Sequence record: NC_047822.1
Direction: 5' to 3' (one strand)
Length of the DNA stretch: 64,000 nt
Origin: Escherichia phage phiLLS
The position numbers and the translations under genes are program-made. The notes below the pieces were generated by a model that saw nothing but the letters and a program-made list of their open reading frames with translations, searched no databases and was not told the origin of the DNA. Below, one piece after another: positions 31 through 63,571 of the stretch (its first letter is position 1; every line of letters starts with the position of its first letter).

Positions 31-72
31 TTGCTAAATGCTTATAAATTCTGTATAATATATTCATAAATT
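31..72 (+). promoter_or_regulatory. T5-type early promoter (TTGCTA-17bp-TATAAT plus downstream ATAAATT element)
   Basis: -35 TTGCTA at 31-36, -10 TATAAT at 54-59, conserved CATAAATT downstream; same architecture recurs more than 14 times in the window. Confidence 0.6.
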
Positions 73-2691: not shown

Positions 2692-3684
2692 TTAAGCCGG
2701 CAGTTTAGCCTGCAGACCAGCCAGAGTCTGAGTGATAGCACCAAGACTTACAGCGATTTGATTAATTACCTGACCGTTAGCACCGTTACCCGCAGCGATT
2801 GCTTCACGTAGGCGACATGCATCTAACTCATCCTGAATACGAGCAGTAGTTACACCAGCGATAGCAGTCTGAAGTTCACAGCAACATTCAGCGATCTGAC
2901 GTTCCAGAGAGTTCTGGTTAGCACACATCTGAGCCTGAACAGCGGCAAACTGGTTATTAGTTTGTAAAGTCTGCTGGAAAGCGATCTGTGCAGAATCAAA
3001 CTTATCTTGTGCACGAGCTATCTGATTAGCTGCGAAAGATTGATCAATCTGGCGAGAAAGATCGAACTGACCCTGAATAACGTTGCGAGTTTCCTGACAG
3101 ATCTGATTAGACAGATTAGCACCTGTACCATAGATCGTAGTTAGTACAGACTGAGTATCACGGCTCTGGTTTTGGGATGTCTGGCTAAACCCATTGTTAA
3201 CTGCGCTTAAAACAGCTCCAGTACCCTGGTTAGCTTCTGTACGAGTAGTGTTAATAGCTGCTAGAATACTAGCGGTATCTTGGTTCTGAAGTACTGCATC
3301 AACTGCGGTACCATCACCAACTACACCACGTCCACCGAATCCACCGAAACCACCGAATCCGCCTGTTAATAGAGCACCGATTAGGATAGCTCCGAATAGT
3401 CCCATACCTTCACCACCGAAAGCACCTGCGTTTGCTGGGTAACCACCCAGTAGGCCAGGGAAGCCACTAGTAAATACGTTTACTGGTTCTTGCATTTTAT
3501 GTTTTCCATATTTATGACAATGTTCATCGTCATCTTCTTCATCATCGTGTTCACGATGTTTTTCTTCGTAGGCTCTGACCTTCTCCCACTTTTTCTTATC
3601 TGATTCCTCGTGACGGTGCAGTTCTGCTGCAACGCTAGCGACGGTCTCAGGACTCTTAGCTACTTCTTCTGTCATTTTTGACAC
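2692..3684 (-). CDS. hypothetical protein with acidic His-rich N-terminus, Gly-rich hydrophobic segment and Q/N-rich C-terminus (330 aa)
   Basis: Strong RBS AGGAGGTG; uninterrupted 993-nt ORF; own sigma70-like promoter upstream. Confidence 0.55.
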   Translation of the reverse strand: MSKMTEEVAKSPETVASVAAELHRHEESDKKKWEKVRAYEEKHREHDDEEDDDEHCHKYGKHKMQEPVNVFTSGFPGLLGGYPANAGAFGGEGMGLFGAILIGALLTGGFGGFGGFGGRGVVGDGTAVDAVLQNQDTASILAAINTTRTEANQGTGAVLSAVNNGFSQTSQNQSRDTQSVLTTIYGTGANLSNQICQETRNVIQGQFDLSRQIDQSFAANQIARAQDKFDSAQIAFQQTLQTNNQFAAVQAQMCANQNSLERQIAECCCELQTAIAGVTTARIQDELDACRLREAIAAGNGANGQVINQIAVSLGAITQTLAGLQAKLPA

Positions 3685-3882: not shown

Positions 3883-3925
3883 TTGCTTGAATGCTAAATT
3901 CTCTGTATAATATATCTATAAATTT
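3883..3925 (+). promoter_or_regulatory. T5-type early promoter
   Basis: TTGCTT at 3883-3888, TATAAT at 3906-3911, downstream ATAAATTTGAAAGAGG. Confidence 0.55.
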
Positions 3926-3941: not shown

Positions 3942-4460
3942 ATGAATGTTGATGAGCTAACACAGCACCTCTTATCTAGAGGATTTGATACAGATAAATA
4001 TCATTGCTGGTTAAGTCCGGAAGGATGGCTAACAGTCCCGTTGTATGACTTCTCTGGGATGTTGAGGGGCTATCAAACTTATAATCCTTCTGCTCCAAAA
4101 GGTCATGGTAAGTGCCCCTTTGAAGCTAAATACTTTACTTATTCTACTACCCAGTGTGTATGGGGACTAGAAACTCTCAATGGAGATGAAAAAGTAGTAT
4201 TGATTGCTGAATCTGTATTTAAGGCAGTTGCGTTACATAATGCTGGTTATCCAGCCCTAGCAATGTTGGGTTCTTCTCCAGGAAAAGCGTTATTAAAGCA
4301 ACTGAAATTACTACCTTTTAAATTGGTAGCTGTCGGAGATAATGATCCTGCGGGTGAAAAATTTGCTAGAAAATTAAACGGCTTTGTTTCTCCCGTAGAT
4401 GTGGATGAGATGTCTACCGAAAACTTGAAAAATTTTCTTGCTATGAAGCTAAATTTCTAA
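3942..4460 (+). CDS. hypothetical protein, possible Toprim-like fold
   Basis: Start moved to the ATG after the promoter and RBS; VLIAES and VGDNDPAGEK motifs resemble Toprim Glu and DxD. Confidence 0.45.
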   Translation: MNVDELTQHLLSRGFDTDKYHCWLSPEGWLTVPLYDFSGMLRGYQTYNPSAPKGHGKCPFEAKYFTYSTTQCVWGLETLNGDEKVVLIAESVFKAVALHNAGYPALAMLGSSPGKALLKQLKLLPFKLVAVGDNDPAGEKFARKLNGFVSPVDVDEMSTENLKNFLAMKLNF

Positions 4461-4480
4461 TATAATATATCTTATAAATT
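4438..4480 (+). promoter_or_regulatory. T5-type early promoter driving a tRNA pair
   Basis: TTGCTA 4438-4443, TATAAT 4461-4466, spacer 17; tRNA begins at 4482. Confidence 0.55.
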
Positions 4481-4481
4481 C

Positions 4482-4570
4482 GGAAGAATAGCATAACGGT
4501 ATTGCAGCAGATTGCTAATCTGTCGGTTTGAAATATAGCCTTGTGGGTTCGATTCCCGCTTCTTCCGCCA
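4482..4570 (+). tRNA. tRNA-Ser (anticodon GCT), long variable arm
   Basis: Acceptor GGAAGAA/TTCTTCC, T-arm GTGGG-TTCGATT-CCCGC, anticodon loop TTGCTAA, 89 nt, CCA encoded. Confidence 0.6.
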
Positions 4571-4577
4571 AATTCTG

Positions 4578-4654
4578 GTTCTCAAGCTCATATGGTATGA
4601 GCACCCGGCTCATAACCGGAAGGTACGTAGGTTCGAATCCTCGGGGAGCCACCA
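4578..4654 (+). tRNA. tRNA with anticodon CAT (Met, fMet or Ile-lysidine)
   Basis: Acceptor GGTTCTC/GGGAGCC, T-loop TTCGAAT, anticodon loop CTCATAA. Confidence 0.55.
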
Positions 4655-4673
4655 AATTAAATAGAGGTCACAA

Positions 4674-4862
4674 ATGGATCTATATATAGTTTATGTTGTG
4701 TTTATCCAAGATAGAGAATACCCGGATGAATATAAAAAAGGGTATAGGTTGGCCAGAGCTACCTCTGAAGCCCAAGCTATGGATAAAGTGGCAGATTATA
4801 TGATTACGGTAGAAAACATACACTATATCGACTACCTTGAAGCCTCAAAAGTAATTGACTAA
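4674..4862 (+). CDS. hypothetical protein (62 aa)
   Basis: ORF with RBS-like AGAGG upstream. Confidence 0.4.
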   Translation: MDLYIVYVVFIQDREYPDEYKKGYRLARATSEAQAMDKVADYMITVENIHYIDYLEASKVID

Positions 4863-4869
4863 ACTACAC

Positions 4870-4946
4870 GGGGGTGTAATCGAATTGGCATAGGTACTGG
4901 ACTTAAAATTCAGGTTTTGTGGGTTCGAATCCCACCACCCCTACCA
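4870..4946 (+). tRNA. tRNA with anticodon TAA (Leu codon reader) in a 77-nt short-variable-arm scaffold
   Basis: Acceptor GGGGGTG/CACCCCT, T-arm GTGGG-TTCGAAT-CCCAC, anticodon stem CTGGA/TTCAG, loop CTTAAAA. Confidence 0.5.
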
Positions 4947-4961
4947 AACTAAGGAAATAAG

Positions 4962-5129
4962 ATGTATAGACATCCACCTCCGCCAACACGTCGTTCTAGA
5001 GAAGTTATCCTCATGGAATTGACTAAAAACTTCAAGGCAACTCTTGAAGATAGAGATCTAGGTACAGATGAAGACGTTGATTTCATTTGTAAACTATTAA
5101 AAATGAAGCTGGAGAAACATCATGGCTAA
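4962..5129 (+). CDS. hypothetical protein (55 aa)
   Basis: RBS AAGGAAATAAG; stop overlaps start of next ORF. Confidence 0.4.
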   Translation: MYRHPPPPTRRSREVILMELTKNFKATLEDRDLGTDEDVDFICKLLKMKLEKHHG

Positions 5130-5328
5130 CCGTGAAATTACTATGCAACGAATCATGACTAAAGGCATGATAGCCGAGGCAGGTATTGAACAAGAAGTAA
5201 AAGGCTATTACGAACAGATTAAGACTATTATAGACTCTGCTAAAAACACCGGAGAAAAAGAGCATGGTGCGGCAATTATGGCTATAACTCTTATTAGTCT
5301 AGACTTGGCCGAAGAATCTGGAGTTTAG
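5122..5328 (+). CDS. hypothetical protein (68 aa)
   Basis: ATG overlaps upstream stop, suggesting translational coupling. Confidence 0.45.
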   Translation: MANREITMQRIMTKGMIAEAGIEQEVKGYYEQIKTIIDSAKNTGEKEHGAAIMAITLISLDLAEESGV

Positions 5329-5358
5329 CTCCTCCAAACAGAATTTTTAAAAATGTAC

Positions 5359-5402
5359 TTGCCTTTTGCTTTAAATTTCTGATATAATAGTTATATAAAT
5401 TG
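5359..5402 (+). promoter_or_regulatory. T5-type early promoter
   Basis: TATAAT 5383-5388 with -35-like TTGCCT and downstream ATAAATTGATGGAGG. Confidence 0.5.
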
Positions 5403-5418
5403 ATGGAGGAGTTAACGA

Positions 5419-5694
5419 ATGCAAAATCGTGTTGTAGCAACTGGTATTGAAAGTGCAATCTGTAAATCCTGGGAAGGCTGGGAAGGTGAGATTGAATGGC
5501 TTTATTTCTATGATGTAGAACTTCTACCGGAAGTTAAAGCTAAATGTATTGAAGCTGGCATGGCTCCAGATGCAAAAGCTGATATTGATATTTTAATGTC
5601 TGAACTTAAAGGTCGTGTAGTTACCGTTAGTAATGAGGGCGAAGAAGTTTTCGAACTTCCGTTCTCCTTAACTGTCACTCCTAAGTTCGACTAA
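5419..5694 (+). CDS. hypothetical protein (91 aa)
   Basis: RBS GGAGGAG 8 nt upstream of ATG. Confidence 0.5.
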   Translation: MQNRVVATGIESAICKSWEGWEGEIEWLYFYDVELLPEVKAKCIEAGMAPDAKADIDILMSELKGRVVTVSNEGEEVFELPFSLTVTPKFD

Positions 5695-5724
5695 CTAATA
5701 CAGCACTGAGCAAGTTCTTTAAAA

Positions 5725-5775
5725 TTTGACTTGCTCAGTGCTATAAAACTTGATATAATAGTTATCTAATTTGGA
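5725..5775 (+). promoter_or_regulatory. T5-type early promoter driving a tRNA cluster
   Basis: TTGACT/TTGCTC then TATAAT 5754-5759; tRNAs follow. Confidence 0.45.
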
Positions 5776-5893
5776 AAGTTCTTTTTAAGGTAGTTCCTAC
5801 TTTAGTAGAGTAAATTTTTGGCAGATGGCCCCCACCATTTTACCGATAACTCCTAGTCAGTGCGGCAACACTGGCTACCTTAAAGAGAATTTT

Positions 5894-6241: not shown

Positions 6242-6514
6242 ATGCATACTGAAAACTTCTTTATTTACTGCGCGGATAAGTCGCTGAAACGTAGAATTAA
6301 CAAAGTCTATCATTATCGTGTTAGTCAACAGCCTTATGTATATGCTTTTGACGGTGATCACATTCCACTAGAACAATTATCTTGTGATTACATGATATTG
6401 AAGAACTTTGACGAGACAAAGATCTCAAGCGTTCATAATCGACAGAATCCATTAACGTGGAAATATAAGAAGAAAAAGAAAGGCATCAAATTCTTAAAAA
6501 ATGTAGTTGCTTAG
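6242..6514 (+). CDS. hypothetical protein (about 90 aa)
   Basis: Start set at ATG after RBS AAGGAG; follows tRNA-Phe directly. Confidence 0.4.
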   Translation: MHTENFFIYCADKSLKRRINKVYHYRVSQQPYVYAFDGDHIPLEQLSCDYMILKNFDETKISSVHNRQNPLTWKYKKKKKGIKFLKNVVA

Positions 6515-6550
6515 TTTCCAAAAGTTCTGTATAATAATTACATAAATTGA
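6507..6550 (+). promoter_or_regulatory. T5-type early promoter
   Basis: TTGCTT 6507-6512, TATAAT 6530-6535, spacer 17. Confidence 0.55.
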
Positions 6551-14218: not shown

Positions 14219-14262
14219 TTGCTAAACCTCTCTTTTCTTGCTATAATATATTTATAAATTGA
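14219..14262 (+). promoter_or_regulatory. T5-type early promoter
   Basis: TTGCTA 14219-14224, TATAAT 14243-14248, downstream ATAAATTGATGAGAGAGG. Confidence 0.55.
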
Positions 14263-19309: not shown

Positions 19310-19966
19310 TTGGAAAAGTTCTTACAATTATTAACGGTACTGCTCCAAGAAGCGAAAGATCCAGCATCGCTTCTTAAACGTCTGCTAACTATCTTAGTTG
19401 CTGTCATTATTTTCTTATTTGTTAGTAATACTAGCGAGGTGATGTCATTCTTAAAGACTTTCTCCACGTCTGCGGTCCTACAGGATGTTCAAACTCAAAG
19501 GATAGATAACTTTCCTAATGTAGCTAGAGAAAAGAGCATGGTACTCTTTTCTCAAACGGGTGCGGATGCTGTTTTTGTCGTCAAGTATAAACCCGATGCC
19601 ATTAATGATTATTCTAACATTATTGCATGGGAAAGCAATGCGCAATTAGATAGGGCTGACTTGGCCGATAAAGCGGTAAATAAAACGTCTGAGCTATATA
19701 GACGTCACTTGGAAGGCTTTAACTACGCATCGGATTTAAGTGTAAAAGTAAATAAATACATGGGGTTAAATATACCTGCGTTTAAGAACGTTACTTTTAA
19801 TTACATATACACTTGTCCATATTTCAATCTAAACAATATCTATGCTGGATATATTGGTATTGCTTGGAAAGATAATCCTGTAGATGCAGCCGATTCTGAG
19901 AAATTTAACGAGTATTTAACAAAGCTCTGTTCCCCACAACAGAGATCTTTAGGTAGATCAATATGA
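19310..19966 (+). CDS. holin-like membrane protein
   Basis: 218 aa with single TM (ILVAVIIFLFV); immediately upstream of endolysin with ATGA overlap. Confidence 0.5.
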   Translation: MEKFLQLLTVLLQEAKDPASLLKRLLTILVAVIIFLFVSNTSEVMSFLKTFSTSAVLQDVQTQRIDNFPNVAREKSMVLFSQTGADAVFVVKYKPDAINDYSNIIAWESNAQLDRADLADKAVNKTSELYRRHLEGFNYASDLSVKVNKYMGLNIPAFKNVTFNYIYTCPYFNLNNIYAGYIGIAWKDNPVDAADSEKFNEYLTKLCSPQQRSLGRSI

Positions 19967-20376
19967 GTTTTAAATTTGGTAAAAATAGCGAAAAACAATT
20001 AGCTACCGTTAAGCCAGAGCTACAAAAAGTAGCTCGTAGAGCTTTAGAATTATCTCCATATGATTTCACGATCGTACAGGGTATTCGTACAGTAGCACAA
20101 AGTGCCCAGAATATTGCTAATGGTACTTCATTTTTAAAAGATCCTAGTAAAAGCAAGCATATTACTGGTGATGCTCTTGATTTTGCTCCATACATTAATG
20201 GCAAAATTGATTGGAATGACTTAGAAGCATTTTGGGCAGTTAAAAAGGCTTTTGAACAAGCGGGTAAAGAACTAGGCATTAAACTTCGTTTTGGTGCTGA
20301 TTGGAATGCTTCGGGAGACTATCACGATGAAATAAAACGTGGTACCTATGATGGCGGTCATGTCGAACTAGTTTAA
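19963..20376 (+). CDS. endolysin, L-alanyl-D-glutamate peptidase (peptidase M15)
   Basis: 137 aa; Zn-binding SKHITGDALDF and DGGHVEL motifs; length matches T5 endolysin. Confidence 0.75.
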   Translation: MSFKFGKNSEKQLATVKPELQKVARRALELSPYDFTIVQGIRTVAQSAQNIANGTSFLKDPSKSKHITGDALDFAPYINGKIDWNDLEAFWAVKKAFEQAGKELGIKLRFGADWNASGDYHDEIKRGTYDGGHVELV

Positions 20377-24759: not shown

Positions 24760-24786
24760 GTAATTAAAAAATTCAGTTGCTTTAGG

Positions 24787-24830
24787 CCTTAAAATTCTGT
24801 ATAATAAGTTCATAAATTAATGAGAGAGGA
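24787..24830 (+). promoter_or_regulatory. T5-type early promoter
   Basis: TTGCTT 24787-24792, TATAAT 24810-24815, spacer 17. Confidence 0.55.
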
Positions 24831-39989: not shown

Positions 39990-40040
39990 TTGTTTCACCT
40001 TGCAATTAAAATGGTTGCAGGGTGAAACAGTTAGCATGGT
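39990..40040 (+). terminator. large hairpin after dmp-like gene
   Basis: TGTTTCACC ... GGTGAAACA 9-bp stem with internal TTGCAA/TTGCAG. Confidence 0.4.
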
Positions 40041-40138
40041 AATAGTAACGGGGGTGGCGGTTAGCAGACTAAGTATTTTCGCCGGAGGCAGTGAGCACAT
40101 CCTCATGTGTAATCTTATGAAATTTCGAGATTTCCAAA

Positions 40139-40384
40139 TTAGCGCATAGAAGGGTCACCAAACCGATGTTCAGGTCTGAACTCACGGAATCTCTTCCGCG
40201 ACGCCCGAGAACCATCCGACCATTCTCGTTCAAACTCCGCACGTTTCTCGTCAAACTTCCGCTCCCTTTCCGCAATCTCCCGCGTCACTCCCGCAATATA
40301 TTTACGATGCTTGTTGATTGCCGCAGTTGTCCCGAAAACCCCCGCGAGTATCCCGATAATAAAAGCAATTACAATACTAAACAT
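40139..40384 (-). CDS. membrane protein with charged C-terminal tail (81 aa)
   Basis: N-terminal TM IVIAFIIGILAGVFG; RBS GAGGGAA; last of four overlapped genes. Confidence 0.45.
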   Translation of the reverse strand: MFSIVIAFIIGILAGVFGTTAAINKHRKYIAGVTREIAERERKFDEKRAEFEREWSDGSRASRKRFREFRPEHRFGDPSMR

Positions 40385-40568
40385 CTAATTCCCTCTCAAT
40401 TTGCAGAATACGGGTACTATCACAACGTTGCAGTAGTGCTAGCTTTTCTAGAGTAACTTGTTGTTTTACCTGAGCTTCTAGAGTTTTTAGGCGGAGATAC
40501 ACGATACGAGAGACAATGAGGATTACCCAGACTAATATTACCATTAGTGTAATTGCCACTTCCATCAT
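40377..40568 (-). CDS. small membrane protein (63 aa)
   Basis: TM plus coiled-coil; ATGA overlap with upstream ORF. Confidence 0.4.
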   Translation of the reverse strand: MMEVAITLMVILVWVILIVSRIVYLRLKTLEAQVKQQVTLEKLALLQRCDSTRILQIERELDV

Positions 40569-40672
40569 TTACGTTTCTCCGATAGTAAGGTTTCGATTCT
40601 AGCTAAGTGATTATCTAAGATACATTGCCCAATAATCACAACCCCCAGTAGTGCAATAATTACCCATTCCAT
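40565..40672 (-). CDS. small membrane peptide (35 aa)
   Basis: Not in ORF track; MEWVIIALLGVVIIGQ...; TAATG and ATGA overlaps. Confidence 0.3.
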   Translation of the reverse strand: MEWVIIALLGVVIIGQCILDNHLARIETLLSEKRK

Positions 40673-40800
40673 TAAATCCACCCCGCCATAGCTGCTAACC
40701 AAAAACCTACGAAGATTAGGAATAATACAAAACCAAATCCGTAAATATTAATCCACGCTTCGTACACTTCTCCGCGTCTGTTCTTTCTTTTATTTGACAT
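40672..40800 (-). CDS. small membrane peptide (42 aa)
   Basis: Not in ORF track; basic N-terminus then TM; first gene of overlapped chain. Confidence 0.3.
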   Translation of the reverse strand: MSNKRKNRRGEVYEAWINIYGFGFVLFLIFVGFWLAAMAGWI

Positions 40801-40976
40801 ATCTTTCGTACTCCCGTAAATGTGATTTTTGAAATATTCTATAATTTGTGCACAACCAACCGTGCCTGTGGACCCCTAGAAGGGCTTCTACTTTTCTTAT
40901 ATAGTGTTTTCTGCCAGTATACCGTCCAAGAAATAAAAAATTTAGTTTACTTGGATGTCTTTTTGCTTTATACTAA

Positions 40977-41243
40977 TTACAAGTAATTAGATTGCTCTAG
41001 TTTAAATTTACAATCACCGTATTTAAGGTCAAACTGACTGAGATCCCACCACCCAAACTTAGTACGGAGCTGTACTACTGGAAAGCGATCTCCCTTAATA
41101 CGAACTTTTTGAACCTTGAGGCCGTAATGTTCCTCTCCCGCACCACCAAAAGATTTTACAAATCCCGTACAAAATGGTTTGGGGGCAGGTGCACAACCAG
41201 ATAACATAACTGCGGCAACTAGTGCAATCACAAACTTTTTCAT
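40977..41243 (-). CDS. lipoprotein (88 aa)
   Basis: Signal peptide with lipobox LSGC; strong PN25-like promoter upstream; divergent from fiber gene. Confidence 0.55.
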   Translation of the reverse strand: MKKFVIALVAAVMLSGCAPAPKPFCTGFVKSFGGAGEEHYGLKVQKVRIKGDRFPVVQLRTKFGWWDLSQFDLKYGDCKFKLEQSNYL

Positions 41244-41257
41244 ATTTATCTCTCCAT

Positions 41258-41305
41258 TTCTAATTTATGAATCTATTATAGCAAAATAGAGAGATGAAAG
41301 CAAAT
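41258..41305 (-). promoter_or_regulatory. PN25-like strong T5 promoter on minus strand
   Basis: Minus strand reads TTGCTTTCATCTCTCTATTTTGCTATAATAGATTCATAAATTAGAAATGGAGAG, near-identical to the T5 PN25 core. Confidence 0.6.
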
Positions 41306-41328
41306 ACATTTTTATAATAGGAGATTAT

Positions 41329-43086
41329 ATGGGTTTTTTCGCTGGAAAATATAGCGATGGTAAGACCGTACTATCTTTAAATACTGAATCTGGTGGTGAC
41401 ATTAATCGTCACTATAGTCCAAATAATAATAGTATTTTTCATAGTGATATGCCATTTGTCCTAGTTGATGGTACTTATGAGGCAGGATTAGGAGATGCCG
41501 GGAATGGGTTTTTTGTCTGTCAGATGCCCTCTGACATAATAAATATTAAATCCAACGACCCGGGTAGAGTTATACTAACTGCTATTGAGATTAATGGTAC
41601 TCATAGGGCTTTTCTTAATGGTACTCAAAGTAAGGTTGGCCAAACTATAGTTGCTACTCAAGCAGATCCCTTTAGATCTTTTGCTAGTGTTTCTCAAACC
41701 AGTGGATTTGCATTTGGTAATAGTCTAGCATCTGGCACTTATAATTATAATCCCTCTCTAGGGCATGAAGAATCTATCTCTAGAAATGGTACTGGAGGTA
41801 CTACGTTACATAGTACCTATCACGGTATAGTTAGGCCCGGTGCGGGAGCTCCTGTAGGTATTACTGTTGCACAAGCTTTTGAGCAATTGGGTTTCCCTAC
41901 TAATAGTAGCACAGTACCTGTAGATGGGAATAACCCGTACTATTGGGATCCCGGATGGATGTCGCCTCTAGGAGCAGCGCATAGAGGGCATGATTGGTTT
42001 TATGTCTGCAATTCTAATATACGTGGATATGGTGGAGTTAGACAAGGGCTCCCAGGTAATGTAAATACTATGTACCACGACGGTGGGAACAGGTTTGTTT
42101 GTAGGGGATCTACTACTAATCTAGCTAACCAGTCGGGTGACTCTACAATACTACAGGATTGGTATAATATAACTCCTACTAAGGTTATTTGGTATGTTCT
42201 TAATTTAAGGTACTCGAATGGTGGAATGAGTATTTCAGGTAATCCCTTTACTGGTTCTGATATTCTTATATCTCCTTCTAATTTCATAATTAAAGGGGTA
42301 AGTCTCCCTAATACCGGGTATAAATTTATTAATCAGAATGCTTTTGGTAACTTAGGTTATCGTCCTGATATGGAGTATATAGGGAATAACGCAGCGTATA
42401 CTGGAGCCTTCGGAGATACCACTGCAAGGTGTGAACTTGTAGGATCTAGTAATGGAGGGTTGTGGTCTCCTGTAGATTATGGAGGGGCTAAATCCCAAAT
42501 TAGCATTTACAAATTTGGAGCAGGTAAACAGTGGTATGTAAACTCTAACGATAATACTATTGGTAATGAGCATGGGGTTGTTTGGGGACCCTCAGCAGTT
42601 CCACTGCGACTTTTTGGTGGAAATGTAGGTAGTTCCTATATGGGAGATGATATTACTCCCCACTATCCAGGAACGGGTGATAGATACGTTGGTTTATCAA
42701 CTATTGGGCTAGGTATACCAGGCGGAAATGCTACAGTAATTCTTACTACTGAAGTTATATCAGGTAATCTTAATTGTGCGGGTGTTCCAGCTAATACATG
42801 GAATAATGGTGTGTTTCAAGTGCAAGGAAGAAGAGCGTATAGCTATAGCGGCGGGGATGCAATATTCCACCAGATTTTAACGCTACCTGTGGGCTATCTA
42901 GTACCTTTTCATACTACATCTGCTTTTAGATACACGCCTAACAATGCTCTTAGTAGAAACAGTTTTATATATACCGTTAAAAATCTAGGAAATGGAAATG
43001 TAGAGTTAGGAGTAGTTATGCATGTGAGTTTGGGTAGCGCAGTTTTCCTACCTAGATTAAGAGTAACAGTTCAACGCCTTACCTAA
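41329..43086 (+). CDS. tail fiber protein (L-shaped/side fiber-like, 585 aa)
   Basis: Gly/Asn/Ser/Thr-rich beta-rich composition; directly upstream of terminase genes as T5 ltf is; RBS TAGGAGATTAT. Confidence 0.45.
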
Positions 43087-61514: not shown

Positions 61515-63571
61515 TGATTTCGAATAATGCACCAGCCAAAATGGTCTTAAATAGTATAATGACTGGATATACAATGGCATATGTCCAGCACTCTATATAT
61601 ACTGACTATGACGTTATTGGTAGATCTTTTTGGTTAAAGACAGAAGAAAGTATAGATAGACGTGATTACACTGGTATAGATACTTTCTTCGTAATGATTA
61701 ATAATCTAATCCCCTCTACCTCCTATGAGATTCAGGGGGCTTTCTATGACTCAATTATTGACTCAGAGTTACTGGAAGCTAAGATTGGTATCAATCTCTC
61801 TAATGAAACTAACTTTAGAACAAAGGAAAAGCCAATAATTACTGCAGCAAGATCTGAATCAGAACCCGTTGACGTTGGTGTTGGTGCTCCAATAGTTGTT
61901 GTAGAGACTACTGGTGAAGCTAGTTACTGCATTATTGAATTAAAAAGTACTGCATCAGAAGATAGTGAATGGGTTAAGTATTATATAGGCGCGTTGGGAC
62001 CTACTATCAAATTTGGTGGTGTTCCGGTTGGCGACTATAAGATCAGAATATCGGGTCAAGTTACGATGCCAGATGGTGTTACAGTTGACTCATCTGGTTA
62101 TTATGAATATCCTAGCATTTTCACTGTAGCCTATAATTTTGTACCACCTACTGCACCTACTAACATTGCCTTTAAAGCTGCACGAATTGCAGATGGTAAG
62201 GAACGATATGATATCAGAATAGAGTGGGACTGGGAACGTGGTGCGGGTGCTAATGTCCGTGAATTTCTGGTTACTTATATAAACTCTGAAGAATACGCTA
62301 AGACTGGCTGGGCTAAAGCTCAAAAGATAAACGTTGGGGCTGCTAGAGCTGCAACGATTATATCATTCCCGTGGAAAGTTGAGCATACTTTTAAGGTATC
62401 ATCAATTGCCTGGGGACCAAATAAGCAAGATATAACAGAGTCAGCTCCTGTAACATTTATATTGAATGAAGATACTCCTCTAGACAACAGCTTTGTCAAT
62501 GAGACGGGTATTGATGTTAATTATGCCTTTATTAAGGGTAGCATGAAAGATGGGGAAATTTGGAGACAGACATTCTTAATCGACGCAGCTACTGGTGCAA
62601 TTAACATTGGTCTACTAGATGAAGAAGGAAAAGCACCTATTTCTTTTGACCCTATAAACCGTGTTGTTAACGTTGATGGTAAAGTAATTACTAGAGATAT
62701 TAATGCTGCGAATTTTATCATGACTAACTTATCTGGTAAGGATAACCCAGCAATTTACACTCAAGGTAAATCTTGGGGGGATAATAACTCTGGTATTTGG
62801 ATGGGCATGGATAATACCTCTGCCAAAGCTAAGTTAGACATTGGTAATGCTACACAGTGGATTCGTTATGATGGTGATGTGCTACGTATTTCTAGTGGAG
62901 TAGTTATTGGAACTCCTAATGGTGATGTAGATCTGGGTACTGGTATGCAAGGTAAGCAAACAGTATTTGTTTATAAGTTAGCAACATCTCTACCTGCTAA
63001 ACCACTAGAACAAGATTATCCGCCTCCTGGTTGGTCAAAAACTCCACCTAACCGTACAGATATGACACAAAATATCTATGCTACTACAGGTACACTTGAT
63101 CCAGTTACTAACAAACTTCTTGAAGGTACTAGCTGGTCTGATGTAGTTCAGTGGAGTGGTACTGAAGGTACTATAGGGCATGACGGACAACGTGGTCCTG
63201 GGATGTACTCCTTAGGTATACCTGGTCTTGGGGGCTGGGATGATGGACAAGCTAATTCCTTCTTCCAGAATAACTTTGGTAGTCCCCCTGTTAAATATGA
63301 TGTATTAACTGAATTTAATAGTAATGCCCCACAATCAGCATTTACACGGCAATGGAATGGTTCTAGTTGGGTTAACCCTGCAATGGTTCTCCACGGAAAC
63401 ATGATTGTTAACGGAACGGTGACGGCAGATAAAATTGTAGCAGGAAATGCTTTCTTATCCCAGATCGGTGTTAACATCATTTATGATAGGAACGCTGCAT
63501 TATCCGGAAACCCTGAGGCGTACTACAAGATGAAGATAGACCTAAATAGTGGGTATATCCATATAAGGTAA
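61499..63571 (+). CDS. central straight fiber / tail tip protein (pb4-like)
   Basis: 690 aa following hub gene; Gly/Thr/Asn-rich. Confidence 0.6.

Follow-up and report, generated by a model that had tools for sequence, protein, structure and literature searches.

The minus-strand gene cluster at 40139-41303 of phage phiLLS, a T5-like phage (Tequintavirus), is very probably the operon for lytic conversion (superinfection exclusion) known from such phages, in its BF23/BtuB allelic form. Gene order and sequence make it the exact ortholog of T5 llp (T5.158) together with T5.159-T5.162. A sigma-70 promoter precedes a gene for an 88-aa lipoprotein, which is followed by four overlapping open reading frames for single-pass membrane proteins of 42, 35, 63 and 81 aa. 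All of these elements lie where an initial annotation of the 64-kb window (the whole stretch of DNA analysed) had placed them, although the small genes, described there as an upstream chain, lie downstream of llp with respect to transcription. The features, in window coordinates and with the evidence for each, are:

41329-43086, plus strand: pb5/Hrs receptor-binding tail-tip protein, 585 aa, divergent from llp, with which it forms the host-recognition module (phrog_4815, E 1.7e-275).
41275-41303, minus strand: P-llp, by sequence a T5 early-class promoter for sigma-70 (−35 TTGCTT, 17-nt spacer, −10 TATAAT, discriminator AGATT).
40977-41243, minus strand: llp, encoding the 88-aa precursor of the predicted receptor-blocking (lytic conversion) lipoprotein in its BF23/BtuB allele (lipobox; identity to BF23 and DT57C Llp).
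40801-40976, minus strand: spacer of 176 nt between llp and the 42-aa gene, the end of the exchangeable pb5-llp module (alignment).
40672-40800, minus strand: T5.159 ortholog, 42 aa, a basic N-terminus and then a C-terminal transmembrane helix, predicted N-in and tail-anchored (phrog_8596, E 6e-31; synteny; dN/dS 0.21-0.28).
40565-40672, minus strand: T5.160 ortholog, 35 aa, an N-terminal transmembrane helix with a short charged tail behind it (phrog_6369, E 2e-26; dN/dS 0.02-0.18).
40377-40568, minus strand: T5.161 ortholog, 63 aa, an N-terminal transmembrane helix, then a tail that is helical and heptad-like (phrog_5851, E 6e-28; dN/dS 0.31-0.47).
40139-40384, minus strand: T5.162 ortholog, 81 aa, a transmembrane helix at the N-terminus, then a tail very rich in E, R and K that is predicted to be cytoplasmic (phrog_6447, E 5e-47; dN/dS 0.09-0.34).
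39991-40029, strand unassigned: strong hairpin within the terminal repeat, between the convergent 81-aa gene and dmp (fold z = −2.3 for the region).

Every gene of the window locus has its counterpart, in the same order, in T5 oad-llp-T5.159-T5.162, and the small genes, which like T5.159-T5.162 occupy the stretch from llp to the right terminal repeat, agree with these in sequence, order, size and overlaps. The same order (pb5/oad, llp, small genes, right terminal repeat) recurs in T5, BF23, DT57C, MM-1 and DaisyDussoix, and in T5, BF23, DT57C and MM-1 llp and the small genes abut the inner edge of the repeat. The repeat boundary was placed at roughly window position 40097 by aligning the window to T5, BF23 and MM-1, in whose records the repeat is annotated; the 81-aa gene ends ~42 nt short of it, and the cluster is terminus-proximal, as had been claimed. 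The nearest public records share ~93-95% DNA identity across the region. Lytic-conversion loci and the role of Llp are well known, so that the locus is in this respect ordinary, Llp itself yields nothing new and the analysis is chiefly valuable as correct annotation. What remains of interest is the quartet of membrane micro-proteins, conserved and phage-specific, found behind llp in every T5-like genome examined.

The lipoprotein encoded in the window is identical to BF23 Llp (BF23_00171) at 88 of 88 residues and to DT57C Llp (DT57C_000129) at 87 of 88. The llp loci of these two phages match that of the window in promoter, ribosome-binding site, divergent position beside hrs/pb5 and downstream genes, and DT57C, like the window phage, couples a BF23-type llp to a diverged pb5. 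Cells carrying cloned DT57C llp gave a more than 100-fold drop in plating for DT57C-type phages and BF23 but none for T5, and DT57C-resistant mutants carry btuB lesions (PMC4728585); BF23 Llp was reported to block BtuB (Mondigler, Ayoub and Heller, 2006, as cited in PMC4728585). Judging from these experiments by others on proteins 99-100% identical to it, the window Llp should protect cells against BtuB-dependent T5-like phages. The proposal that the cluster has the arrangement of T5 Llp and serves superinfection exclusion is thus borne out by the synteny with T5, by the match to BF23 Llp and by the published protection.

The signal peptide, read from the sequence as MKKFVIALVAAVMLSG followed by C-A, contains the lipobox LSGC with Cys17 and Ala at +2, and the protein scores 23.9 bits against Pfam LPAM_1 (cut-off 20), consistent with a lipobox, whose processing the initial annotation had asked to be checked. 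By the sorting rule for E. coli lipoproteins, Ala at the +2 position would direct the protein to the outer membrane. A lipobox scan of the whole 64-kb window returned Llp as the sole lipobox ORF, with no second lipoprotein such as a u-spanin.

Alignment to T5 Llp and to Cor proteins had also been suggested. T5 Llp (T5.158; FhuA-blocking; structures 8A60 and 7QJF) is 26-30% identical to the window Llp, mostly in the signal peptide, and its target is FhuA as opposed to the BtuB of BF23-type Llp, with no cross-protection between the two (PMC4728585). By sequence we class the window protein as the BF23/BtuB allele and not as a close homologue of T5 Llp. Full-length hhalign comparison of BF23-type with T5-type Llp gave 92% probability (E 5e-7), but the signal was lost once the signal peptides were cut off (E 0.18, not significant), and we therefore dropped the full-length match as proof of homology between the mature domains. 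Both cysteines of the two types do line up in a global alignment. Against PHROG 1119 (the T5 Llp/Cor superfamily) the window Llp scores E 1.8e-26 over profile positions 1-78 of 78 and T5 Llp E 1.1e-19 over 1-77 of 78. The Cor protein of the T1-like phage 'grams' is 34% identical to the window Llp over 80 residues that include both cysteines and 27% identical to T5 Llp, and since it aligns with both it bridges the two. Cor lipoproteins (of T1-like and lambdoid phages: phi80, N15, T1) are, like Llp, small, located in the outer membrane and encoded beside a receptor-binding gene; they too exclude phages that share one TonB-dependent transporter, and all fall in PHROG 1119. Cor phages belong to another phage family, and cor of 'grams' has no tail of small membrane genes behind it. 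The NCBIfam Cor equivalog NF047972, a model of lambdoid Cor, gave the window Llp 15.8 bits against a cut-off of 31 and matched residues 1-35 only, and a phmmer search of Llp against PDB sequences returned only noise (e.g. ovomucoid, a cellulase).

These two weak spots, the non-significant mature-domain similarity to T5 Llp and the sub-threshold score with the Cor model, are what could be cited for reading the lipoprotein as a lysis protein (o-spanin) or a structural lipoprotein whose resemblance to Llp is merely positional. We consider that reading hardly credible. The protein is 100% identical to BF23 Llp and 99% identical to DT57C Llp, both functionally tested, its gene sits in the usual divergent place by pb5 and away from the lysis cassette, and published work on identical proteins already contradicts a lysis or structural role. 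Clear homology to unrelated lysis proteins had been named as grounds for abandoning the Llp assignment; what was found is identity to BF23 Llp, in a gene 20 kb from the lysis cassette.

The genes llp (start 41243) and pb5 (start 41329) diverge across an 85-bp spacer. Divergence from the neighbouring gene had been described correctly, but the neighbour is the pb5/Hrs tail-tip receptor-binding protein and not a fiber. The window pb5 is 97% identical to DaisyDussoix pb5, 73% to that of DT57C (annotated as BtuB-binding), 67% to BF23 Hrs and 30% to T5 pb5. At just 67-73% identity to the proven BtuB-binding proteins of BF23 and DT57C it represents a different sub-allele, and the assignment of BtuB as receptor therefore rests on the llp allele and on the 97% match to DaisyDussoix pb5; an explicit statement of the DaisyDussoix receptor was not found in the literature. 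Nearly all Markadamsvirinae target BtuB (BASEL paper). The llp allele predicts the terminal receptor, here BtuB, and the phages that would exclude one another, and in this way helps the design of phage cocktails.

In P-llp, the −35 hexamer TTGCTT occupies 41303-41298 and the −10 hexamer TATAAT occupies 41280-41275, followed by AGATTCATAAATT. The promoter had been described as PN25-like, and compared with the 70-nt PN25 both hexamers and the 13 bases after the −10 are identical (45 of 70 positions overall). A pattern made of the 25 specified bases of the PN25 core matched P-llp with 0 mismatches, against 0.00 such matches expected by chance (100 shuffles), and five more copies elsewhere in the window, with 2-3 mismatches each, make with P-llp a family of six. 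This pattern search took the place of a simple promoter scan, which overlooked P-llp because TTGCTT scores only 3/6 against TTGACA. PN25 itself was excluded as the llp promoter, as the true PN25 maps to T5 63048-63117. P-llp is almost the same in BF23, MM-1 and ESCO30 and is recognisably kept in T5, whose record carries an annotated promoter at the matching position.

The promoter fits the description of T5 early promoters in its TTGCTT hexamer, 17-nt spacing, TATAAT hexamer, A(T/G)ATT discriminator and downstream CATAAATT block. Its AGATT discriminator is that of PN25 and differs from ATATT, which every known T5 early promoter is reported to have in its discriminator (Klimuk, 2020, PMC7472727). 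By these sequence features P-llp belongs to the early class, like PN25, and not to the pre-early class. The "very early" expression expected for the lipoprotein puts the timing too early; llp lies outside the first-step-transfer repeat, which argues against pre-early expression. According to the title of a 1994 paper by Decker, cited in PMC4728585, T5 llp is expressed early.

The spacer between llp and the 42-aa gene is conserved among BF23-type phages and is unrelated in T5 until ~45 nt before the ATG. No canonical terminator was found between llp and the small genes, the spacer folds no better than its shuffles (z = +0.87), and Rfam gave no match to it; at E ≤ 1 the Rfam search yielded two sub-threshold chance hits. 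The lack of a terminator suggests that llp and the four small genes are co-transcribed. An internal promoter ahead of the small genes is possible: the spacer holds a −10-like TAGAAT at 40841-40836, which is conserved in T5 as TAGAGT, and the BF23 record carries a predicted promoter in this spacer, annotated as "absent in T5". The hairpin at 39991-40029 has a predicted folding energy of −16.6 kcal/mol on the minus strand, where a moderately U-rich tail follows, and of −23.8 kcal/mol on the plus strand, and it likely ends the llp-operon transcript, the dmp transcript or both.

Taken together, these features are compatible with the following course of events. Following the second step of DNA transfer, the sigma-70 RNA polymerase of the host would start the llp transcript from the strong early-class promoter at 41303-41275 and, because no terminator follows llp, would probably read on through the four small genes to the hairpin just inside the terminal repeat. 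Pre-Llp would be exported, lipidated at Cys17 and, given Ala at +2, placed in the inner leaflet of the outer membrane. There it would bind BtuB, a TonB-dependent transporter, on its periplasmic face and lock it in a state unusable by pb5/Hrs, so that infected cells and debris would stop taking up or inactivating sibling phage. Binding at the periplasmic face is proposed by analogy with T5 Llp, which binds and locks FhuA from the periplasmic side (PMC9586334, PMC10644984; FhuA-Llp structure 8A60, PMC9586334); no structure of BtuB with Llp was found. The four downstream genes would yield translationally coupled single-pass micro-proteins of the inner membrane, whatever the receptor allele.

The four small genes are real and under purifying selection. 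Their dN/dS lies between 0.02 and 0.47 overall, with dS up to 0.7 and beyond, and their frames and overlaps are kept from T5 to Epseptimavirus. The 35-aa protein, with its start set at the ATG, is identical to T5.160 at 34 of 35 residues; the 63-aa gene has one codon fewer than in relatives and lacks an annotated counterpart in both of the Epseptimavirus loci that were compared. A Shine-Dalgarno-like purine run lies 5-10 nt ahead of the ATG of each gene. Of the junctions between the genes, the two overlaps noted initially (TAATG, 1 nt shared, and ATGA, 4 nt shared) were confirmed, and the third is of another kind, an 8-nt overlap (ATGTTTAG). The window lacks two additions seen in some relatives, namely a 51-aa paralog of the 35-aa gene and a homing endonuclease that follows the 81-aa gene. 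That the four are chance open frames or relics might be argued from their very short length (35-81 aa) and from inconsistent public annotation, with differing starts in BF23 and the label "tail fiber protein" in ESCO30; the excess of synonymous changes over replacements, the conserved frames and overlaps, and the Shine-Dalgarno-like run and separate PHROG family of each ORF make that exceedingly improbable.

The genes are confined to T5-like phages. The 81-aa protein was found in 442 phage records, all T5-like, and a profile search with it across 1.84 billion representatives gave 5 hits only, all T5-like and all within the set already retrieved. None of the four matches a Pfam or NCBIfam family above threshold, PADLOC gave no match for any of the five proteins of the cluster, and sequence and profile comparisons of the micro-proteins detected no similarity to anything beyond T5-like phages. 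The 81-aa protein matched Pfam LapA_dom below threshold (21.9 bits, cut-off 28); this match and weak NCBIfam matches to FtsL and SecE were set aside as generic similarity between transmembrane helices with charged helical extensions. Each small protein has one strongly hydrophobic 19-mer (mean Kyte-Doolittle 2.3-2.8) with K/R-rich flanks on one side only, and from this charge distribution the tails are predicted, by the positive-inside rule, to be cytoplasmic. The proteins are ~80-97% identical between the FhuA-type phage T5 and the BtuB-type window phage; the small genes are conserved independently of receptor type.

Receptor blocking by Llp does not need them, since the llp clone used in the published work stops at the opening codons of the 42-aa gene (PMC4728585). 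In the CRISPRi-ART screen, knock-down of each of T5.159-162 was scored "Not Fit" (PMC11879866 supplement), i.e. had no fitness effect in T5. The quartet is by this screen dispensable, and any role would be conditional. A full-text search for T5.159-T5.162 and T5p155-158 returned no paper, and the CRISPRi-ART supplement alone lists these genes.

The initial annotation had offered the small proteins as additional exclusion or membrane-remodelling factors, and a receptor-independent accessory role at the cytoplasmic membrane is our own, weakly supported, guess. They might raise a second barrier to incoming DNA or protect the envelope or the membrane potential. As a more definite proposal, an inner-membrane assembly made together with Llp and acting as a second, receptor-independent exclusion layer or in envelope protection, we hold this to be rather unlikely. 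T4 Imm, P22 SieA and HK97 gp15 are small phage proteins of the cytoplasmic membrane that block DNA entry by a second phage and are dispensable in single infections; as models of how the micro-proteins might work they are offered by analogy only. If the proposal is true, the micro-proteins would, for example, close the inner-membrane route to T5-type DNA, and Llp would be the outer half of a two-membrane exclusion system.

The micro-proteins could instead be anti-defence or host-takeover factors unrelated to exclusion, neutralising membrane-acting abortive infection or inhibiting a host inner-membrane machine (a protease or transporter), and we regard this as possible though doubtful. It would accommodate their dispensability on the defence-poor K-12 host, their lineage-restricted ORFan character, the placing of the 81-aa family in the PHROG category "moron, auxiliary metabolic gene and host takeover", and a variability of the cluster (the extra paralog in some phages, the loss of the 63-aa gene in Epseptimavirus) that is typical of accessory arms-race genes. 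The high conservation, with dN/dS down to 0.02 in the 35-aa gene, is unlike fast arms-race evolution, no partner or target can be named, and the absence of any PADLOC, Pfam or NCBIfam similarity above threshold also counts against it.

A part in lysis timing, as holin-, antiholin- or spanin-like factors tuning the breach of the envelope, seems quite improbable. Small single-pass proteins with charged tails do resemble holin and antiholin accessories, and the 63-aa protein, with its transmembrane helix and coiled-coil-like tail, forms with Llp a superficial likeness of an i-spanin/o-spanin pair. Yet the tails are predicted to be cytoplasmic, whereas an i-spanin requires a periplasmic one, and the locus lacks the hallmarks of a two-component spanin (a periplasmic coiled-coil subunit and an outer-membrane lipoprotein, in or next to a lysis cassette). 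The demonstrated function of Llp is a different one, the genes sit behind an early and not a late promoter, their knock-downs had no fitness effect, and a separate holin-endolysin cassette (phrog_860, phrog_465) lies 20 kb away at 19310-20376.

Reading the minus strand from 41305 to 40139 confirmed a promoter (P-llp), a lipoprotein gene (llp) and four ORFs for small membrane proteins, divergent from a receptor-binding gene. The small ORFs, previously placed upstream of the lipoprotein gene, lie downstream of it, and the divergent neighbor described as a fiber gene encodes the receptor-binding tail-tip protein pb5/Hrs, separated from llp by an 85-bp spacer and followed by the genes for the small and large terminase subunits. 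Two junctions among the four short ORFs are the TAATG and ATGA overlaps of the initial annotation but the third is an 8-nt overlap; a purine-rich Shine-Dalgarno run precedes each of the four.

Features of the llp locus
Minus strand: P-llp promoter, −35 TTGCTT at 41303-41298, 17-nt spacer, −10 TATAAT at 41280-41275, then AGATTCATAAATT (sequence reading)
Between promoter and 88-aa ORF, minus strand: llp ribosome-binding site GGAGAG (sequence reading)
40977-41243, minus strand: llp, 88-aa ORF, N-terminus MKKFVIALVAAVMLSG|CA
Between llp and the 42-aa ORF, minus strand: 176-nt spacer
40672-40800, minus strand: 42-aa ORF
40565-40672, minus strand: 35-aa ORF
40377-40568, minus strand: 63-aa ORF
40139-40384, minus strand: 81-aa ORF
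41329-43086, plus strand: pb5/Hrs receptor-binding tail-tip gene (phrog_4815, E 1.7e-275)

A megablast search with the region matched 306 phage records; essentially all are from T5-like Escherichia and Salmonella phages (Demerecviridae, Markadamsvirinae), and the top matches reach 93-95% identity. The order terminase, pb5 (oad/hrs), divergent llp and four to five tiny genes is common to T5, BF23, DT57C, MM-1, DaisyDussoix and ESCO30, and the right terminal repeat (dmp, a 130-aa ORF, A1) comes next in records where the repeat is annotated. In the T5 reference, whose orientation is the reverse of the window, llp is T5.158, the small genes are T5.159-T5.162 and the repeat begins 42 nt past the T5.162 stop; alignment to annotated phages puts the repeat boundary at ~40097 in the window.

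The 88-aa protein has a textbook lipoprotein signal (Pfam LPAM_1 score above cut-off), and its Ala at +2 fits the outer membrane under the E. coli lipoprotein sorting rule. It is identical at 88 of 88 residues to the receptor-blocking proteins of BF23, DaisyDussoix and ESCO30 and at 87 of 88 to DT57C Llp, and tblastn found 74 phage records at no less than 99% identity. Cloned DT57C llp reduces plating more than 100-fold for DT57C-type phages and for BF23, with T5 unaffected, and DT57C-resistant mutants carry btuB lesions (PMC4728585). The same paper cites Mondigler et al. (2006), in which BF23 Llp is reported to block BtuB. The published DT57C/BF23 llp cloning primers match the window near the llp start with one mismatch, and the reverse primer anneals to the opening codons of the 42-aa gene; the published clone thus contained llp alone, and the small proteins are not needed for Llp action. 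T5 Llp locks its transporter from the periplasmic side, as described with the solved FhuA-Llp complex and in related papers (PMC9586334, PMC10644984). Because identical or near-identical proteins were studied, the function of the window llp is, by sequence identity, known, and the proposal of a T5 Llp-like, receptor-blocking lipoprotein is borne out by the BF23 and DT57C proteins, which shield cells from BtuB-dependent T5-like phages. On the strength of the identity to a characterised receptor-blocking protein we rejected a lysis protein. We are confident that the locus is a T5-type lytic-conversion operon carrying the BtuB allele.

A lysis or spanin function is unlikely because the holin-endolysin cassette is separate (19310-20376) and no ORF in the 64-kb window other than Llp has a lipobox; no lipobox-bearing spanin candidate was found across the window. 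The cassette, on the plus strand ~20 kb from the llp cluster, encodes a 218-aa holin (phrog_860) and a 137-aa endolysin (phrog_465) with overlapping ends.

The T5 and BF23 Llp proteins have been described in the literature as non-homologous. The window Llp is 26-30% identical to T5 Llp, mostly within the signal peptide. A Cor protein of "grams", a T1-like phage, can be aligned across the mature domain with both the window Llp (34% over 80 residues) and T5 Llp (27% over 74 residues). Both Llps match PHROG 1119 ("Cor superinfection exclusion protein") full-length; the window Llp scores below the cut-off of the curated NCBIfam Cor model. A profile-profile comparison of the two types gave 92% probability full-length, a signal we dismissed as mature-domain evidence since E was 0.18 without signal peptides. 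The two non-lipidated cysteines of the window Llp are invariant in 12 homologues and align with the two cysteines left in mature T5 Llp; the intramolecular disulphide bond of Llp is conserved in Cor proteins (PMC9586334). In a viral structure library the highest-ranking matches were the phiR2-01 receptor-blocking protein (E 7e-9; phiR2-01 is T5-like and BtuB-dependent) and an Escherichia phage CEC_Kaz_2018 protein labelled "super-infection exclusion protein" (E 2e-3). In our reading the two Llps would belong to one very distant Cor/Llp family sharing a working principle, any direct homology between them being putative.

The PN25 sequence compared with P-llp matches T5 63048-63117 at 100% identity, where the T5 record annotates a promoter; this validates the comparison and rules out PN25 itself as the llp promoter. 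The description of P-llp as nearly identical to the PN25 core was accurate: both hexamers and 13 bases past the −10 are identical (45/70 positions overall). Allowing up to three mismatches, the window has six copies of the core pattern (0.00 expected), and only the one at llp is perfect.

Further PN25-type early promoters (2-3 mismatches each against the PN25 core)
31-72, plus strand
3883-3924, plus strand
6507-6548, plus strand
14219-14260, plus strand
24777-24818, plus strand

These five share the layout TTGCTx, 17 nt, TATAAT, then A(T/A)(A/T)T..ATAAATT and form one promoter family with P-llp, zero copies being expected by chance. All known T5 early promoters are reported to have an ATATT discriminator (Klimuk et al. 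2020, PMC7472727); in P-llp and PN25 it reads AGATT, and in the remaining window copies it is an ATATT-like variant. Judged by these elements P-llp is an early-class promoter. "Very early" expression would thus be early rather than pre-early, since llp lies outside the terminal repeat, the first-step-transfer DNA.

Alignment of T5-type and BtuB-type phages showed that the swapped module comprises pb5, llp and the llp-to-42-aa spacer except for its last ~45 nt. The host-recognition module (41244-43086) is itself mosaic: the window Llp is 100% identical to that of BF23 while the adjacent pb5 is 67% identical to BF23, 73% to DT57C and 97% to DaisyDussoix. This implies that a putative recombination breakpoint lies within or close to the 85-bp spacer that holds the divergent promoters; Golomidova et al. 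proposed such a breakpoint for DT57C (PMC4728585).

The locus, its arrangement, the lipoprotein function and the pb5-llp exchange are already known from published work (Decker 1994; Mondigler 2006; Golomidova 2016, PMC4728585; Happonen 2021; van den Berg 2022; the BF23 genome paper, 2023). Our finding is the correct reading of a known system. For the orthologs of T5.159-T5.162, selection analysis rejected spurious ORFs: dN/dS was 0.02-0.47 in comparisons with T5, BF23, MM-1, SP3 and IrmaTschudi (an Epseptimavirus), dS reaching 0.7 or higher. Reading frames, overlaps and ribosome-binding sites are kept across relatives and each protein has its own PHROG family, all of which indicates that the four are real genes. 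Each protein has a single strongly hydrophobic stretch flanked on just one side by K/R residues, and by the positive-inside rule the 42-aa protein would lie N-in/C-out and the other three N-out/C-in. Nothing scored above threshold in Pfam, NCBIfam or PADLOC. Both genera carry the 42-, 35- and 81-aa proteins; the 63/64-aa protein is annotated in neither Epseptimavirus locus examined (EPS7, IrmaTschudi). The 81-aa family comprises 442 phage records, all T5-like, and when 1.84 billion representative proteins were searched with its profile only five hits came up, each already among the phage proteins collected for this family. A CRISPRi-ART screen scored every one of T5.159-T5.162 "Not Fit" in T5; its authors caution that T5 calls outside the pre-early region are less precise (PMC11879866 and supplement).

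The small proteins are ~80-97% identical between FhuA-type T5 and the BtuB-type window phage while the pb5-llp module is swapped, which makes them independent of receptor type. They would act at the inner membrane in an accessory capacity that does not depend on the receptor, and would be made together with Llp. Possible roles, roughly from most to least likely, are a second layer of exclusion or envelope protection, anti-defence or host takeover, and lysis timing. As no terminator was found between llp and the small genes and a strong hairpin (39991-40029) lies past the last of them, co-transcription from P-llp is the simplest model; an internal start is possible given a conserved −10-like TAGAAT (40841-40836) and a promoter predicted at the llp-to-42-aa spacer in the BF23 record.

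MM-1 (L001:3777-3932, minus strand) and DaisyDussoix (L002:3776-3931) have one more small gene, of 51 aa, inserted between those for the 42- and 35-aa proteins. It is a tandem paralog that has diverged from the 35-aa gene (same start MEWVII, same PHROG 6369, E 1.5e-16); ESCO30 has its sequence unannotated, and the window, T5, BF23 and DT57C are without it. In SP3 (L007:3546-4197) and IrmaTschudi (L008:2709-3424) an HNH homing endonuclease gene directly follows the 81-aa gene and overlaps its end. Many 81-aa homologues are 72-74 aa forms with a different or shorter C-terminal ~14 residues, so that the tail end seems dispensable. The public ESCO30 annotation (OM386657, L003 features 2978-3276 and 4089-5876) appears wrong: the 63- and 35-aa proteins are labelled "tail assembly protein" and "tail fiber protein", pb5 "receptor-blocking protein" and the 130-aa terminal-repeat ORF "baseplate wedge subunit", which look like propagated misannotations.

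The nearly perfect hairpin at 39991-40029 (dG −23.8 kcal/mol on the plus strand, −16.6 on the minus strand) sits between the convergent dmp and 81-aa genes, ~70-105 nt inside the terminal repeat and near the left physical end of virion DNA, and may be a bidirectional terminator or have a genome-end role. The inner boundary of the repeat falls within ~40097-40138. Just outside it, the 22-mer AAATTTCATAAGATTACACATG (40125-40104, minus strand) may be part of an end-generation or packaging signal; it is invariant in five of five aligned phages while neighboring bases vary.
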